In this document: positions 1 to 4,793 of the stretch, piece by piece
Layout: every line of letters starts with the position of its first letter
Numbering within the stretch: the first letter of the stretch is position 1
IMG/VR virus record: IMGVR_UViG_2534682002_000009
Span: 1 to 4,793 of that record
Direction: 5' to 3' (one strand)
Length of the DNA: 4,793 nucleotides
Origin: a virus
Lineage: Duplodnaviria > Heunggongvirae > Uroviricota > Caudoviricetes
Position numbers and translations under genes: made by a program
The notes under the pieces: generated by a model
What the model saw: only the letters and a program-made list of their open reading frames with translations
Database searches by the model: none
What the model was told of the DNA's origin: nothing

Positions 1-668
1 TGAACCTGACCTTTTGCCCGGCGCAGCTCGCGGTTAGCCACATGCAGCGATGGTAAAATCAGCCCATCCGGATGCTTTCTGGTGAACAACGGCTGTGACT
101 GCACTGTGACCGCCACACTTTCAGTTTTTATTTCTTCCTGTGTCGTCGTTTCCTGGACTGGTAACGCAACACCTGTTGGCTGAGGAAAGGCTTTACCATC
201 GGTTTCCGCTACGGATGCAGCTTCCGGCTCTGCCGGTAAATCAGCGCCCGGTATGCAGTAACGAAATTTACCGTTCTGATTTACGCGTGCCAGGCGCCCC
301 GTTGCTGTTACGACCGCCAACGTGGAAGCAACCTTGCGAATGCTAACACCGAACTTATCCGCCAGTTCCTCACACGTTTTAGCCCCATCCTGACAGATAA
401 ACTCAATCATCATGTCCGCGGTAACTTTTTGTTCGACCTCCCCGGTCAGCACATCCGGTACTTCAGACTGTGCTGGCTGCTCTTCGGTTACCCCGGATTC
501 ACCTTCACCAGCCAGAAACCAGGTGTGACCCGTTTTATCAACAACGCCATTTTTTTTGAGTTCCCACAGTTCGTTGAGAACTTCTTCACGGCTGATATCA
601 AGCCGCGCCGCCAGTTCAACAGAATTGGCTTTACCCATCGCTTTCAGTGCATGCAATACGGTTTCCAT
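1..668 (-). CDS. Hypothetical prophage protein with two winged-helix-like repeats; 3' end runs off the window (about 222 codons visible)
   Basis: Not in the ORF track because no stop lies in the window. Minus-strand ATG at 668..666 is preceded by GGAGG with an 8-nt spacer, 29 nt downstream of the DnaC-like stop. My manual translation is open to position 3 with no stop and begins [43 protein letters not shown], with a second similar repeat ([43 protein letters not shown]). Family assignment not possible without a search. Confidence 0.55.
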
Positions 669-697
669 TAAAACTTCCTCCGGATAAAAATTACTTC

Positions 698-1438
698 TCA
701 GTTCCTGTGCTGGCTGACGTTCGGACGCCAGCTCTCCCAGTTAAACGTCACCCAGCGACCACCGTTCATGGACATGCGGTCCATCACCCGCTCGCCGAGA
801 AGTGTATTCATCGCTGCATGGTTAAGATTTGTCAGCATCCCCACACTGAGTAACGATGCCGTTCTGCGGTCAACAATCTGATTCAGCGTGACCTGCTCAT
901 TACGCGTATCCCGTTGCATGCCAATTTCATCCAGTACCAGCAGGTCAACGCCACACAATCCCTGCAAAAATTTTTCGCCCGAGTTTTTGTTGTCGTAGCT
1001 GCCATGTAACGCCAGCATCACATCCGCCACTGTTATCACAATCACACTGCGACCTTTCGCCAGAAGGTGGTTGCCAATAGCCGCCGCCAGGTGGTTTTTT
1101 CCTGTGCCAGGCCGGCCACTGAACACAAAATTCGTACAGCCGCCTTCCAGCTCTGCCGCAATGGATTTCGCCTGACTCAGGGCATGGCGCTGACCATCGT
1201 TCTGCACCCGGTAGTTACCGAACGTACACTTCCGGTGAAGCGGCTGGATACCGGAGCGGTTAATGATTTTTTCAACCCGCGTCTGATGATTCAGACGATT
1301 AACCTCCTCGCTTCGCTTACGCCCTTCAGCAAGCTGCCATTCCCGCCACTCCGTCACCGTACGGTACGGAGGGATTGCATCCTGCGGCACAAATCTGCTG
1401 ACTCTTGCCAGAACACCACCTGACGTAATGTTTTTCAT
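698..1438 (-). CDS. DnaC-like AAA+ replicative helicase loader (phage replication protein)
   Basis: 246-aa ORF with Walker A ([15 protein letters not shown]) and Walker B (LLVLDEIG) motifs. ATG at 1438, GGGGG Shine-Dalgarno about 9 nt upstream, 6 nt after the stop of the upstream O-like gene. Gene order initiator then loader is typical of lambdoid replication modules. Confidence 0.88.
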
Positions 1439-1444
1439 GATGCG

Positions 1445-2410
1445 CTACCCCCTGAAACCCGGCGGAATTTCGGTATCCGGTTCAGAAATATGATTCACGC
1501 AACGCTGCGCGGGACCACGCCACAGTCGAATAACCAGTTCATCCCATTTCTCACGGAGTTTTTCCGGGCTCTTGATGTTTTTTATCCAGAACGGATCCCG
1601 TTGTGCCCGGCTGAACATTTCGCAAATTTGTCTGTGACTTCTTCCATCCAGCATCCGCATTGTGCGCACGTCATTGGCCCACGCCGTCCAGTTGGGCTCT
1701 TTCGGTCGCGTGATCTCACCATCGTCACTGGCAGCCTGTTCGTACAGGTTTACAACCCGCCCCCAGATCCACTGCGCACATGTCAAATCCTCCCGGGTTC
1801 CCCACTGGCGTTTTTTCACGCTGAACACAACAGCATCAGGATGGCGGGTTAAAAACGCCTGTTCAGCCGTCAACTCGTCCGGTTGCGAAGCGTCCGGACA
1901 AGAGAGTTTTTTATTCTCTGTTGTATTCTCTGTTGTATTCTCTGTAGGATCATCGGGCCATTTTGACCTGATGACATTGGGCCGTTTTGAACCAATGGAA
2001 CGTTTCATTTTGACCTCTTCCATCGTGTCATTTTGACCTGATGGAGTGGCGCATTTTGACCCGATGGATTCGTTCACTTTGCCATCATCTAAAAGCGCGC
2101 TATCGTAGTTAATTGTGTAAAAATTAGTCATATCACGCTTCGATTTATTGAGCTTTTCGCTACGCAAAAGCCCCAGCGCTTTCAGACTTGCAAACGCACG
2201 CTTTAACGTTGACTCTGACCAGAACGGAAACTGTTCCAGCCATTGTTCCGTTGTGTTGTAAATCCAGCGAACGCCATCACATTCCATGCCGGAACTGGTA
2301 TCCCTCAACCAGTAATGCAGTTGCTGCAACACAATGGCTTCGTTTAAACCAATCTTCATCGCCAGCTGTGTGTTTATAACCAGCGGGCGTTCAGCAAAAA
2401 GAAGGCTCAT
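1445..2410 (-). CDS. Replication initiator, lambda O-like (origin-binding), with iterons inside the coding sequence
   Basis: Long minus-strand ORF directly upstream of the DnaC-like gene. It contains five ~23-bp-spaced iterons (1957-2067), which produce a repeated SIGSK peptide, and a 12-bp tandem repeat encoding TENTTENTTEN. Start is uncertain: the track begins at a GTG at 2452 (335 aa); I prefer the first ATG at 2410 (321 aa, MSLLFAERPLV...). Neither has a clear SD, and either overlaps the upstream gene (20 or 62 nt), suggesting translational coupling. Confidence 0.8.
   Translation of the reverse strand: MSLLFAERPLVINTQLAMKIGLNEAIVLQQLHYWLRDTSSGMECDGVRWIYNTTEQWLEQFPFWSESTLKRAFASLKALGLLRSEKLNKSKRDMTNFYTINYDSALLDDGKVNESIGSKCATPSGQNDTMEEVKMKRSIGSKRPNVIRSKWPDDPTENTTENTTENKKLSCPDASQPDELTAEQAFLTRHPDAVVFSVKKRQWGTREDLTCAQWIWGRVVNLYEQAASDDGEITRPKEPNWTAWANDVRTMRMLDGRSHRQICEMFSRAQRDPFWIKNIKSPEKLREKWDELVIRLWRGPAQRCVNHISEPDTEIPPGFRG
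1912..1947. repeat. Direct tandem repeat, about three copies of a 12-bp unit (ATTCTCTGTTGT); encodes TENTTENTTEN in the O-like protein
   Basis: Read directly: ttattctctgttgtattctctgttgtattctctgtagg. It is in frame within the minus-strand CDS and lies next to the iteron array. Confidence 0.85.
1957..2067. repeat. Iteron array, putative prophage replication origin (five copies of CATTTTGACCYGATGG-like repeat)
   Basis: Copies begin near 1959 (cattttgacctgatg), 1982 (ccgttttgaaccaatgg), 2006 (cattttgacctcttcc), 2029 (cattttgacctgatgg) and 2052 (cattttgacccgatgg), spaced 23-24 bp. They sit inside the initiator gene as in lambda ori, flanked by moderately AT-rich DNA at about 2090-2135. Confidence 0.75.
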
Positions 2411-2912
2411 AATTCCATCCGGCTTTTTGTTGGTACTGGTGACGATAGGCACGCTTGAAAGCGATTGCTTTTTCTATAAGCTCGTCTGTCTCACGTTCCA
2501 CAACAGCTGGATCTGCAAAAAGCAGCCCGGACTCCACCACATCGCCATATTCTTTGTTTAACCCGGCAATCATGTACGTAATGCTTTTTCCGTCAGTAAT
2601 TTCGCGGTACAACCTGAAATCACTAATCCGGATAGCCTCCATAATTGCCGGAATCAGCGCCGTGAATTTTTCACGCTTATCCCTGGTGTCGATAGCCTTC
2701 CAGCGTTCGAATATCTTCACCCGGTTAACGCCAAGCGCACGCTGATCAACCCCGCCATCATCAAGCGTGACACGCTGAACATCGATGTTCGGGCGTTCCT
2801 GTAGAGCCCAGAAGGCTTCAGTAATTAATATCGTCGCCTGCTCCTGCGTCATTCCTGGTCTGCATACCCAGGCATCCAGAGCCTCGCAAACCTGTTCAGG
2901 TGTGATTTTCAT
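2391..2912 (-). CDS. Hypothetical prophage early protein in the YdaT/CII position
   Basis: 173-aa ORF. Its ATG at 2912 overlaps the 3' end of the Cro-like gene by 17 nt and its 3' end overlaps the initiator start. It occupies the slot between cro and the replication genes. No motif recognisable by eye; function is inferred from position only. Confidence 0.65.
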   Translation of the reverse strand: MKITPEQVCEALDAWVCRPGMTQEQATILITEAFWALQERPNIDVQRVTLDDGGVDQRALGVNRVKIFERWKAIDTRDKREKFTALIPAIMEAIRISDFRLYREITDGKSITYMIAGLNKEYGDVVESGLLFADPAVVERETDELIEKAIAFKRAYRHQYQQKAGWNYEPSFC

Positions 2913-3174
2913 TGTTCACCGCCAGTAATTCATTCGCTGTACTCTTACGTCCACAAGGCAGGCCATCGGTTGGGTTAGGGTAAATATCTGGTCGGAGCTC
3001 GTGGGGGGTGACAGTCCACGCCATAATCTCACATAGTTGTAAAACCCTTGATGCAGGGACCTGTTGCCCATTAACCCATCGACATACAACCTGCTGTGGC
3101 AACCCAATCAAGCGAGCAACACCCGCTTGGGATAACCCTATTTGGCGAATTTTATTTTTTAAACATTTATGCAT
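2896..3174 (-). CDS. Cro/YdaS-like HTH DNA-binding protein (lytic-side regulator)
   Basis: Track ORF 2896..3210 trimmed to the internal ATG at 3174, which has a GGAG SD 8 nt upstream (minus strand ggagttagcgatATG). Predicted HTH is SQAGVARLIGLPQQVVCRWVNG. It is divergent from the repressor gene and first in the leftward operon. Confidence 0.8.
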   Translation of the reverse strand: MHKCLKNKIRQIGLSQAGVARLIGLPQQVVCRWVNGQQVPASRVLQLCEIMAWTVTPHELRPDIYPNPTDGLPCGRKSTANELLAVNNENHT

Positions 3175-3281
3175 ATCGCTAACTCCAATCAATCGACACC
3201 ACTTATACACTTTAAAAGTTACACTATCAACACTTTCAAGCTGATTGTGCTGGCTACACTTTTTTTGTGTAAAATGAATGC
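3175..3281. promoter_or_regulatory. Divergent immunity region (OR-like): candidate operators and back-to-back promoters
   Basis: Palindromic ACTTTAAAAGT at 3209-3219, and ACACT(TT) repeated at 3207, 3221, 3230 and 3256. Minus-strand candidate promoter TTGATA (plus 3225-3230), 17-bp spacer, TATAAG (plus 3202-3207), about 25-30 nt upstream of the Cro-like ATG. Plus-strand TAAAAT at 3270-3275 lies immediately before the repressor ATG at 3282. Confidence 0.55.
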
Positions 3282-3689
3282 ATGAAGCGAATGACCACTC
3301 TTGAAATAACCACGTACCGGATAAAACTGGTGCTGGAAAAAACAGGGCTTAAGCAAGCAGAACTAGCCCGCAGAATAGGTGTTGCCCAACAATCGGTCCA
3401 AAAGTGGGTTCATGGCATCACAAGCCCATCAATGGCTAATCTTGATAAACTTTCTGAAGTAACAGGATTCCCTCCATATTGGTTTATGTTGCCACCAAGT
3501 GAGGACGAACAGATTGTGGTACCTGACACAATGAAAATAGGTCCGAAGCAAAGAGAGCTACTTCAGACATTTGGTGCATTCCCAGAGGAAGAACAGGGAC
3601 AAATGCTTCAGGAGATGAAAGACAAAAAAGAGTTAATGGAGCGCACAATTGAAAGATGGCTCGCTGCCCGGAAAGGGCATCGAGCATAA
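3282..3689 (+). CDS. paaR: XRE/CI-like HTH transcriptional repressor (PaaR-like); candidate prophage repressor and TA regulator
   Basis: 135-aa ORF with N-terminal HTH (LKQAELARRIGVAQQSVQKWVHG) and no LexA-like peptidase domain. Divergent from the Cro-like gene and first gene of the regulator-antitoxin-toxin cassette. The symbol is from remembered similarity to the O157:H7 PaaR-PaaA-ParE systems and is unverified. An alternative ATG at 3291 is possible. Confidence 0.8.
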   Translation: MKRMTTLEITTYRIKLVLEKTGLKQAELARRIGVAQQSVQKWVHGITSPSMANLDKLSEVTGFPPYWFMLPPSEDEQIVVPDTMKIGPKQRELLQTFGAFPEEEQGQMLQEMKDKKELMERTIERWLAARKGHRA

Positions 3690-3718
3690 TGACCACCATA
3701 CACAGACGGAGGTGTGCC

Positions 3719-3907
3719 ATGAATACGGCCCTTTCACCAATGGTTTCTGAGTTCGAAACCATTGAACAAGAAAACAGTTACAACGAATGGCTGCGTGCGA
3801 AAGTAGCAGCGAGCCTTGCAAATCCGCGCCCAGCAATTCCCCATGACGAGGTTGAGCGCAGAATGGCAGAACGCTTTGCTAAAATGCGCAAGGAACGGAG
3901 TAAGTAG
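3719..3907 (+). CDS. paaA: Small antitoxin (PaaA-like), partner of the ParE toxin
   Basis: Track ORF 3656..3907 trimmed to the ATG at 3719, which has a GGAGG SD with about 8-nt spacing; this gives 62 aa (MNTALSPMVSEFETIEQENSYNEWLRAKVAASLANPRPAIPHDEVERRMAERFAKMRKERSK). The stop is 3 nt before the ParE ATG. Size, charged helical character and position are typical of ParE antitoxins. I recall PaaA2 as 63 aa with a very similar sequence, unverified. Confidence 0.75.
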   Translation: MNTALSPMVSEFETIEQENSYNEWLRAKVAASLANPRPAIPHDEVERRMAERFAKMRKERSK

Positions 3908-3910
3908 TAA

Positions 3911-4198
3911 ATGTTACCCGTGTTATGGCTTGAAAGCGCAGATACCGACCTAGATGATATAACTAGTTATATTGCTCGTTTCGACATAGATGCGGCAGAA
4001 CGCTTATGGCAGCGATTAAGGGGGTGTGTGCTGCCGTTATCCGAACACCCGTATTTATACCCACCAAGCGACAGAGTACCTGGCTTGCGTGAGATTGTAG
4101 CTCACCCTAACTATATAATTCTTTACCGTGTAGCCACTTTAAGCATTGAGATCGTGAGTGTAGTACACGCCAGACGCCAATTCCCCAAGCAGAACTAA
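3911..4198 (+). CDS. parE: ParE/RelE-superfamily type II toxin (plasmid-stabilisation ParE-like)
   Basis: 95-aa ORF. The N-terminal LPVLWLESADTDLDDITSYIA and C-terminal YRV...IEIVSVVHARRQFP regions look like ParE-family toxins. It directly follows the small antitoxin ORF, has GGAG about 10 nt upstream, and is followed by a terminator. Confidence 0.88.
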   Translation: MLPVLWLESADTDLDDITSYIARFDIDAAERLWQRLRGCVLPLSEHPYLYPPSDRVPGLREIVAHPNYIILYRVATLSIEIVSVVHARRQFPKQN

Positions 4199-4211
4199 CC
4201 CTTTCACAGGG

Positions 4212-4235
4212 CCGTCTCATCTCGAGGCGGTTTTT
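4212..4235 (+). terminator. Rho-independent terminator ending the repressor-antitoxin-toxin operon
   Basis: Stem 4212-4218 (ccgtctc) pairs with 4224-4230 (gaggcgg), 7 bp with one G-U pair, 5-nt loop, then TTTTT at 4231-4235, 14 nt after the ParE stop. Confidence 0.6.
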
Positions 4236-4250
4236 GTTGCTCACAACCTA

Positions 4251-4284
4251 ACTTTATAAGTGTTGACATAATAACTTTAAAAGT
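4251..4284 (+). promoter_or_regulatory. OL-like region: two copies of the ACTTTAWAAGT operator motif flanking a candidate rightward promoter
   Basis: ACTTTATAAGT at 4251-4261 and ACTTTAAAAGT at 4274-4284, centres 23 bp apart; the second is identical to the site at 3209-3219. Between them are TTGACA (4263-4268) and an overlapping TGaCATAAT (4264-4272) resembling an extended -10. Which element acts as the promoter is not resolved. Confidence 0.45.
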
Positions 4285-4469
4285 GCATCCTTGTTTCACC
4301 AACCCACCCCATTCAACAGAACGCAGGGCAATACTTCGAGTTACCCGGCAGTGGTCAGGGGTTAAGTAGCCAGCCCGAGGCGTATGAACATGACGGCGGG
4401 AACACTTTGTATAACAGCGCAGCAGGTTTTTAGTTCCGCGACCCGGCGTTAAGGGTAAATGAGGTCAAC

Positions 4470-4622
4470 ATGGATATGCTCAATCTTGGCAACAATGAAT
4501 CTCTGGTGTGCGGAGTATTCCCCAACCACGACGGCACGTTTACCGCGATGACGTATACCAGAAGTAAAACGTTTAAAACCGAAGCTGGCGCGCATCGCTG
4601 GTTAGCAAGAAACGCTAACTGA
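4470..4622 (+). CDS. Small hypothetical prophage protein (50 aa), first gene of the rightward early operon
   Basis: Absent from the ORF track. ATG at 4470 with GAGG SD 5 nt upstream; my translation is MDMLNLGNNESLVCGVFPNHDGTFTAMTYTRSKTFKTEAGAHRWLARNAN, stop TGA at 4620-4622. It is in the position of the small ydaF/ydaG-type genes next to racR in Rac-like prophages; that family resemblance is from memory only. Confidence 0.5.
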   Translation: MDMLNLGNNESLVCGVFPNHDGTFTAMTYTRSKTFKTEAGAHRWLARNAN

Positions 4623-4660
4623 TTAGCGCCAGTAAAAACAGGTTTCCACAGGTTAATTTA

Positions 4661-4676
4661 CCCTGAAAAGTCAGGG
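4661..4676 (+). other. Short hairpin, CCCTGA-AAAG-TCAGGG (boxB-like shape)
   Basis: 6-bp perfect stem with a 4-nt A-rich loop, 39 nt after the small ORF stop. No T-run follows on either strand, so it is not a canonical terminator. Confidence 0.35.
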
Positions 4677-4686
4677 CATAACACGA

Positions 4687-4750
4687 AAGCGCACGGCGAA
4701 GTTAGTCTCTCTGTATAGGTCGTCGTTAAATTTAATTCGACCGTGCGCTT
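4687..4750. repeat. Long imperfect inverted repeat (10-bp perfect arms AAGCGCACGG / CCGTGCGCTT, 44-bp spacer)
   Basis: Read directly: aagcgcacgg at 4687-4696 and ccgtgcgctt at 4741-4750. The arms extend with one bulge (cgaa / ttcga) to about 14 bp. No flanking T-run. Confidence 0.5.
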
Positions 4751-4793
4751 CTGGTTGTGGCAATCCGCGAAATGGCGCGGCGGTAAGTATGGC

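Follow-up and report, generated by a model that had tools for sequence, protein, structure and literature searches.

The regulatory gap and its flanking genes

The stretch of DNA analyzed here, hereafter the window, measures 4,793 nucleotides (nt; positions 1 to 4,793 of IMG/VR record IMGVR_UViG_2534682002_000009) and is part of a lambdoid Escherichia coli prophage. It is found at 100% DNA identity in the chromosomes of Shiga-toxin-producing E. coli strains such as 2012C-4227, in whose genome it is flanked on one side by integrase, excisionase, exonuclease and dicB genes and on the other by replication, antiterminator and tail genes. Our subject is a gap of 107 base pairs (bp; 3175-3281) which, by the list of open reading frames (ORFs), extends exactly from the ATG of a Cro-like gene (3174, minus strand) to the first ATG of the ORF of a divergent repressor gene (3282). 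We propose that this gap serves as the right operator (OR) in the immunity switch of a lambdoid prophage, where sites for the repressor and for the Cro-like protein overlie the back-to-back promoters PR and PRM (the promoter for repressor maintenance), and we put the probability of this reading at roughly 85%. The original prediction, made from the letters of the sequence, had already placed a divergent promoter and operator region between these two genes, and Pfam bears out their identity as a YdaS/Cro-type helix-turn-helix (HTH) protein and a short HTH_3 repressor. A short gap that holds both promoters between divergent genes of these kinds is the arrangement expected of a lambdoid switch. 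The repressor gene, moreover, lies directly 5' of paaA-parE toxin-antitoxin (TA) genes in one operon at the position of cI, with a terminator only past parE:

2896-3174, minus strand: Cro-like (YdaS-type) HTH gene, 92 amino acids (aa), first of the predicted PR transcript (Pfam YdaS_toxin, 1e-10, and HTH_3)
3282-3689, plus strand: HTH_3 repressor gene, 135 aa (Pfam HTH_3, 1.3e-13)
3719-3907, plus strand: PaaA2-type antitoxin gene, cargo of the repressor operon (Pfam PaaA2, 1.4e-19; PDB 3zbe, PaaA2, E 4e-34)
3911-4198, plus strand: ParE2-type toxin gene (Pfam ParE_toxin; PDB 5cw7, ParE2, E 1e-57)
4212-4238, plus strand: intrinsic terminator at the end of the repressor-TA operon (stem of 7 bp, loop of 5 nt, U-tract)

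RefSeq coordinates for the Cro-like gene agree with ours, and a 51-nt segment at the terminator folds at -15.3 kcal/mol (z -2.5).

Predicted operators and promoters

The motifs originally reported in the gap were four direct ACACT(TT) repeats and a separate 11-bp palindrome that recurs after the toxin gene. Exact copies of ACACTTT indeed stand at 3207, 3230 and 3256, and the palindrome, ACTTTAAAAGT, occupies 3209-3219 and recurs at 4274-4284; a copy with one mismatch, ACTTTATAAGT, lies at 4251-4261. ACACTTT occurs five times in the 4.8-kb window against 0.78 expected, three of these copies falling within 56 bp, and none of 200 shuffled sequences reached five; the expected count for the palindrome is 0.12, and again no shuffle of 200 reached what is observed. 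Both motifs are thus far above chance, and they are confined to the two regulatory gaps. The leftward promoter proposed with them is also in place, in that TATCAA (3225-3230) and CTTATA (3202-3207) on the plus strand read on the minus strand as TTGATA and TATAAG, separated by a 17-nt spacer (3208-3224) with the palindrome inside it as claimed. What we would redraw is the grouping of the motifs. The layout of a repressor-occluded promoter is supported, but four half-sites and one palindrome are better described as three imperfect 15-bp dyads of the form ACAC-N7-GTGT that overlap PR and PRM, the ACACTTT copies being the left halves of the predicted sites OR1 to OR3 and the palindrome the core of OR1.

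A further suggestion, that the gap be compared with 4245-4290, proved fruitful. Positions 3205-3235 and 4258-4288 are 31-nt inverted copies with 81% identity, and hence the block of promoter plus operator that faces the Cro-like gene recurs, inverted, after the toxin gene. There, two sites of the same form (left operator, OL) accompany a promoter resembling the early-left promoter PL. The predicted elements are as follows:

3183-3186, minus strand: Shine-Dalgarno GGAG, 8 nt 5' of the Cro-like ATG; its plus-strand counterpart CTCC is kept in close relatives
3202-3207, minus strand: PR -10 hexamer TATAAG; distant relatives have TAnnnT at the same position
3207-3221: predicted OR1, ACACTTTAAAAGTTA, in the PR spacer, holding the palindrome 3209-3219
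3225-3230, minus strand: PR -35 hexamer TTGATA; TCAAC conserved family-wide
3230-3244: predicted OR2, ACACTTTCAAGCTGA, left half strong and right half degenerate; its first base overlaps the PR -35
3256-3270: predicted OR3, ACACTTTTTTTGTGT; its last T opens the PRM -10
3270-3275, plus strand: PRM -10 hexamer TAAAAT, 6 nt before the repressor ATG
4249-4263: predicted OL2, TAACTTTATAAGTGT; its last T opens the PL -35
4263-4268, plus strand: PL -35 hexamer TTGACA, perfect; invariant in the related loci L002, L003 and L011
4272-4286: predicted OL1, TAACTTTAAAAGTGC, in the PL spacer
4286-4291, plus strand: proposed PL -10 CATCCT, weak (3 of 6 matches)

The first base of OR1 pairs with the first T of the PR -10. 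Site centers lie 23 bp apart for OR1-OR2, 26 bp for OR2-OR3 and 23 bp for OL1-OL2. Three related dyads over two promoters, together with a second cluster at the early-left promoter, are what a lambdoid switch would lead one to look for, with OR2 as the weak member; indeed, OR2 is the least certain of the three predicted OR sites. The PL -10 is placed by its register with PR through the inverted repeat and with TAGATT of L011, and its assignment should be read as provisional.

Several other candidates in and around the gap were considered. A generic promoter scan listed none of PR, PRM and PL among its hits, PR being missed because the scan demands T at hexamer position 6. A minus-strand TTTACA-18-CACAAT (3273-3244), which overlaps OR3, was rejected, since its -10 varies among close relatives and the three hits obtained equal chance expectation. 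A 12-mer direct repeat, CCAATCAAGCGA in the Cro-like coding sequence (3104-3115) and CCAATCAATCGA in the 5' untranslated region (3185-3196), is probably due to chance, the latter copy being unconserved.

Conservation of the sites in close and distant relatives

Comparison of 12 distinct sequences that share an identical repressor recognition helix (AQQSVQKW) sets the predicted elements apart from their surroundings. Invariant positions number 13 of 15 in OR1, 14 of 15 in OR3 and 14 of 15 from the PRM -10 through the ATG, against 16 of 27 in the 5' untranslated region of the Cro-like gene and 4 of 11 between OR2 and OR3; OR2 itself is intermediate, at 10 of 15. One of the two variable OR1 positions is the center base, where A and T flip and the dyad stays intact. 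On the PL side, the block of OL2, -35, OL1 and -10 is nearly invariant in relatives, while the adjoining upstream terminator region diverges. Repressor residues 1-50 are identical in the three of these sequences compared directly. Of the four reported repeats, the ACACT at 3221 fares differently from the others: its letters are present, but no part of the region varies more among the 12 relatives than 3222-3225, which makes this copy unlikely to be a site and probably a chance occurrence.

The comparison with related prophages was then a matter of gathering locus DNA around repressor homologues from assemblies, viral contigs, metagenomes and species genomes, and the 111 loci that carry the helix motif reduce to 33 distinct operator sets. 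Homologues at ~53-100% identity occur in Escherichia, Salmonella, Enterobacter, Klebsiella, Raoultella, Pluralibacter, Morganella and Sodalis, with the helix core Q-Q-(S/T)-V-Q-x-W invariant among them; among species-representative genomes, a scan with the single repressor protein gave no match and a profile scan two loci only. The layout of the gap is kept throughout. All 33 sets hold three 15-bp sites of the form ACAn-N7-nTGT at spacings of 22-25 and 24-26 bp, with site 1 in the PR spacer, site 2 abutting TCAAC (-35), and site 3 ending on the first T of TAAAAT, TAGAAT or TATAAT. Perfect ACA-N9-TGT sites in these relatives cluster in OR and OL, and elsewhere only isolated matches are found. 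A scoring matrix built from other clades returns OR3 as its top hit in the window, at 19.3 bits, and lends the sites moderate support.

A separate group of viral contigs (L032, L033 and L080-L088) carries a repressor homologue with the helix AQQSVQRW or TQQSVQRW and no divergent Cro-like gene upstream of it. The gene preceding this homologue ends in a PaaR-like C-terminus (...EDLVARWLAQQGRRA), which suggests two PaaR-like genes in tandem.

The wider family also bears on where the repressor begins. RefSeq starts the protein at 3291 (132 aa) and the ORF considered here at 3282 (135 aa). Among 35 unique relatives, 34 have an in-frame ATG 6-7 nt beyond the PRM -10, and no Shine-Dalgarno sequence precedes the repressor start. 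The spacing is equal at paaR2 of CP-933P (Sp12), a prophage of E. coli O157:H7 in which PaaR2, YdaS and YdaT act like CI, Cro and CII (Jurenas et al., 2021; PMC8630535); the paaR2 mRNA is leaderless by 5' RACE and N-terminal sequencing (PMC8630535). For these three reasons, namely the conserved spacing, the missing Shine-Dalgarno sequence and the paaR2 precedent, we favor 3282 over 3291 and predict a leaderless repressor mRNA.

Operator base 4 changes together with both regulators

The best PDB match to the repressor HTH domain is the 434 repressor (E about 1e-3, residues 12-68), and in that alignment the helix AQQSVQKW lies against TQQSIEQL, with Lys41 opposite 434 Gln33. In the 434 co-crystal of Aggarwal and co-workers (1988), Gln33 reportedly reads base pair 4. 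Throughout the 33 operator sets, half-site base 4 tracks the Gln33-aligned residue in the repressor and in the Cro-like protein alike. A repressor with Q goes with G or A at base 4 in 84/84 half-sites and never with C; R is accompanied by C in 39 of 42, and K in 47 of 72. When the Cro-like protein has R at this position, base 4 is C in 85 of 108 half-sites; when it has Q, G, H or L, C appears in none of 84. C can be credited to perhaps three independent lineages, namely the clade of the window together with L005, the R clade and L091, a distant locus; five or six lineages lack it.

Two loci bear on what the operators follow. L011 encodes a Q-type repressor, yet its paaA2-parE cargo, terminator position and PL leader are as in the window; on its PL side, TTGACA begins with the last T of one site (ACAATTAAAAACTGT), the other site (ACAGTTTTTAATTGT) ends on TAGATT, and both match the OR sites of the same locus and keep the register of OL2 and OL1. 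CP-933P, with a third type of repressor, has GTTTAGT repeats at both the OR and the OL places. Since each of these has an operator type of its own, it is the repressor, rather than the DNA on either side, that the operators follow. The spacing of OL1-OL2, furthermore, equals that of OR1-OR2 within each type checked (23 bp in the window, 24 bp in the Q-type L006, L009 and L011), as cooperative pairwise binding would require, and across the family both pairs lie 22-23 bp apart in K- and R-type loci, and 24 bp apart in most loci of the Q type.

It is tempting to see a natural dial of heteroimmunity in these regularities. One position of the recognition helix may set operator base 4 (Lys or Arg for C, Gln for G or A), with the Cro-like partner changing in step, and, together with a 1-bp shift in spacing, this might alter immunity while the C-terminal domain, TA cargo and PL leader stay constant. 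We hold this idea tentatively and would set its chances at somewhat under even. If true, such a residue-to-base dial would be usable for designing orthogonal repressor-operator pairs, and the family-wide table of operators and helix residues provides testable predictions on the origin of heteroimmunity.

Alternative explanations

The same letters could be grouped, as originally proposed, into four same-strand ACACT(TT) direct repeats bound head-to-tail, with the palindrome a separate element. All four copies do share the plus strand, conservation is far better in the left than in the right halves of OR1-OR3, and the authors of the CP-933P study noted a possible use of both direct and inverted repeats (PMC8630535). 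This grouping nevertheless strikes us as very improbable, given that the position at 3221 reads CACT, CACA, TACA, GACA, TTCA, TATT, CTCA or GTTT in close relatives, that Q- and R-type relatives have near-perfect 15-bp dyads at the same three positions (e.g., ACAGTAAAATACTGT and ACACATTTATTGTGT), and that the OL sites carry the ACAC half on the opposite strand. A different owner for the repeats would be the PaaA2-ParE complex, in the canonical autoregulatory style of type II systems. Many type II antitoxins bind palindromes at their own promoter, and the TA genes here are downstream in the same transcription unit. PaaA2, however, matches in Pfam only a short "stability determinant" family, with no DNA-binding domain found; L005-L010 keep the three-site plan with no TA genes at all; and the window and L011 share their cargo while their operators differ and track the type of repressor. 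In CP-933P, too, the regulator is PaaR2 (PMC8630535). We give TA-complex autoregulation almost no credence, and it is excluded as far as the comparative data allow.

Alternatively, the sites might serve the repressor only, with the Cro-like protein acting elsewhere or being no DNA-binding antagonist here; that protein is just 25% identical to YdaS of CP-933P, and Pfam names its family a toxin. Its recognition helix, PQQVVCRW, nonetheless starts with Gln-Gln like that of the repressor, and the Arg at its base-4 position co-varies in parallel with the repressor across clades. YdaS of CP-933P, moreover, footprints the same region as PaaR2 and represses both promoters (PMC8630535). A repressor-only use of the sites is therefore improbable in our estimation, and the shared Gln-Gln helices and the parallel co-variation at base 4 point indirectly to operators that both proteins might use, with the opposite preferences that a bistable switch would call for.

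A number of observations weigh against the lambdoid-switch reading itself, or against parts of it. All of the support for this particular variant is comparative, the loci compared are phylogenetically non-independent, and site registers were set by a symmetry-aware score, which assumes dyad symmetry from the outset. Among the promoters, the PR -10 lacks T at position 6, where close relatives have G, A or C; the proposed PL -10 is weak; and PRM has no recognizable -35. The right half of OR2 is degenerate and the site falls outside the top 12 hits of the matrix built from other clades, which also yields three or four off-target hits. The center of OR2 lies ~45 bp upstream of the predicted PRM start, and activation of PRM from there is uncertain; OR2 of phage lambda is 3 bp nearer to its PRM start than OR2 is here. 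Finally, the association of K with C is broken in L089 (K-type, preferring A) and in many non-C right halves, though most K-type exceptions sit in the weak right halves of OR2 and OR3.

A proposed switch mechanism

The comparison shows where the sites and promoter hexamers lie, that they are better conserved than their surroundings and that they change along with both regulators; the mechanism that follows is inferred from this. If the gap is the OR of a lambdoid switch, PR would read leftward on the minus strand into the Cro-like gene and then into ydaT and the replication genes, and PRM rightward into the repressor and paaA2-parE, probably as a leaderless mRNA from the ATG at 3282. OL2 and OL1 would cover a PL-like promoter that reads into the early-left genes (DUF1391/ydfA-like, then, in the source genome, dicB, exonuclease, xis and int). 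Repressor dimers on OR1 plus OR2 and on OL1 plus OL2, probably bound cooperatively, would keep PR and PL off and PRM active, with OR3 mediating negative autoregulation of the repressor. OR3 would likely also be the first target of the Cro-like protein, which might thereby shut off repressor synthesis; the two proteins would read the same half-sites through their recognition helices beginning Gln-Gln.

Two further features of the proposal are more speculative. Repressor bound at OR2 might stimulate a PRM that has no -35, much as low PaaR2 does in CP-933P, and the PaaR2-like C-terminal domain might permit higher oligomers and looping between OL and OR over ~1.04 kb. The repressor has no peptidase domain in a Pfam search, which returned HTH families only. 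Lacking an autocleavage domain, it would have to be inactivated for induction by an antirepressor, as the Gifsy and DicA repressors are. In that class the antirepressor is often under LexA control, and here it would be encoded elsewhere in the prophage, outside the window.

Neighboring genes, the PL leader and distribution

The remaining genes of the window complete a gene content that is typical of a lambdoid immunity region:

2391-2912, minus strand: YdaT-family gene
1445-2452, minus strand: O-like replication protein gene
698-1438, minus strand: DnaC/IstB-like ATPase gene
minus strand: DUF1627 protein gene, truncated by the end of the window
4470-4622, plus strand: DUF1391 protein gene, beyond a gap after parE

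Matches to the CP-933P YdaT site TTGATT-N6-AATCAA number three against 2.88 expected, and no site of the PRE type was identified in the window. Inside the O-like gene (1912-2081), CATTTTGACC occurs exactly four times (at 1959, 2006, 2029 and 2052; 0.53 expected) and a perfect 12-mer tandem, TATTCTCTGTTG, runs for 2.8 copies at 1912-1945; these repeats resemble a replication origin of the iteron type lying within the gene of its initiator, the situation in lambda.

The first ~110 nt of the predicted PL transcript (4292-4400, plus strand) are conserved in 94 of 114 loci, in every immunity type and with or without TA genes, around an invariant core of CAATACTTCGAGTTA ... TAAGTAGCCAGCCCGAGGCGTA-GAACATGACGGC. 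A two-helix structure of 9 bp, picked by eye, shows compensatory changes, with a covariation score of 0.232 against 0.087 when shuffled (0 of 500 reached the observed value), and slid partners give at most 0.087. RNAalifold offered no convincing fold for this leader, its single-sequence fold is not unusually stable, and neither the leader nor the whole window (E<=1) has a match in Rfam. A put-like pair is unsupported, as a covariance model finds one copy per prophage. No N-like gene follows PL. The segment may be a cis-acting leader RNA.

The immunity type of the window is present in 37 of 5,426 complete E. coli genomes, mostly of Shiga-toxin-producing and livestock strains, and its Q-type relative (L011-type, with PaaA/ParE cargo) in 510 of the same 5,426, many of them O157:H7; this relative may be the published paaR1 system. 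Of the 114 loci fetched, 85 have PaaA and ParE after the repressor, and these span the K, Q, R and PaaR2 types. The paaA2-parE cassette consequently travels behind repressors of at least four DNA-binding specificities, which bears on the published idea that a TA cassette guards immunity regions against recombinational replacement.

Comparison with known systems

The closest well-studied counterpart of the window is CP-933P, in which PR, PRM and PL have been mapped and the function of the switch was shown by electrophoretic mobility shift assays, DNase I footprinting, 5' RACE and gfp fusions (PMC8630535). PaaR2 and YdaS both footprint the gap there, and PaaR2 at low levels stimulates PRM (PMC8630535). 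Gene order is the same in both prophages: a DnaC-like gene, O, ydaT, ydaS, a short gap, the repressor, paaA2, parE2, a terminator, PL, the leader and the early-left genes. A leaderless regulator mRNA and an octameric regulator belong to the CP-933P type, and the 6 nt from PRM -10 to ATG are common to both prophages. The PaaA2 and ParE proteins of the window differ from the crystallized CP-933P proteins at a few positions only, and the PL leader and replication genes are homologous at ~84% DNA identity. DNA homology to CP-933P (L004 type) breaks off at 1914 and picks up again at 3718, the base just ahead of the paaA2 start codon (3719), and 1915-3717, comprising the N-terminus of O, ydaT, ydaS, OR and the repressor, is without DNA homology; this cassette is accordingly of another immunity type, set between flanks that the two prophages have in common. 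Identity is 25% for the Cro-like proteins and 31% for YdaT, and the window repressor is a domain chimera relative to PaaR2, with 53% identity over the C-terminal 55 aa and an unrelated N-terminal domain. The gap measures 107 bp in the window and 97 bp in CP-933P. Whereas CP-933P has 18-bp repeats of the GTTTAGT type, four in OR and three in OL, the window has 15-bp dyads, three in OR and two in OL, and ACACTTT-type sites stand in place of operators of the GTTTAGTAA type. As their operator types differ, the two prophages would be heteroimmune.

Lambda (PMC8630535) shares with the window a divergent PR/PRM pair, three operators in the interval from cI to cro, another cluster of operators at PL past the cargo of the repressor operon (rexAB in lambda, paaA2-parE here), and a leaderless repressor mRNA, which is predicted here. 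Unlike lambda, the window encodes a repressor of 135 aa with no autocleavage domain, its operators measure 15 bp where those of lambda measure 17, there are two sites in OL, ~1.04 kb separates OL from OR, and PL is followed by no N homologue. The 434 repressor, for its part, has the same Gln-Gln-Ser start of the recognition helix, and its operators likewise have conserved outer bases beginning ACA and an A/T-rich center. In 434, whose operators are 14 bp long, the outer four bases on each side are conserved and the center is read indirectly (PMC1636474), a principle that the A/T-rich centers of our sites fit. The differences from 434 (14-bp ACAA-N6-TTGT) are a site length of 15 bp, C and not A at base 4, Lys for Gln33, and a C-terminal domain that is PaaR2-like rather than an S24 peptidase; DNA similarity is undetectable.

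In its build the window repressor resembles GfoR and GtgR of the Gifsy prophages and DicA of Qin, all of ~135 aa, with an HTH and a short C-terminal domain and encoded at the lambdoid cI position. Short repressors of the Gifsy and DicA class are inactivated by antirepressors and not by RecA-stimulated cleavage (PMC3121763; PMC10448788). The relationship is a distant one: by tblastn, the Gifsy-1 and Gifsy-2 repressors and genes annotated as dicA are ~34% identical to the window repressor. These are also the nearest matches among sequenced phage isolates, none of which has a repressor more than 60% identical, and a literature search with the operator strings returned unrelated papers only. Judged by its sequence, the switch region of the window is a previously undescribed specificity (heteroimmune) variant of a well-understood kind of switch. 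It leaves the textbook picture of lambdoid switches unchanged, and it supplies an undescribed immunity type with concrete predicted operators, promoters and a leaderless start.

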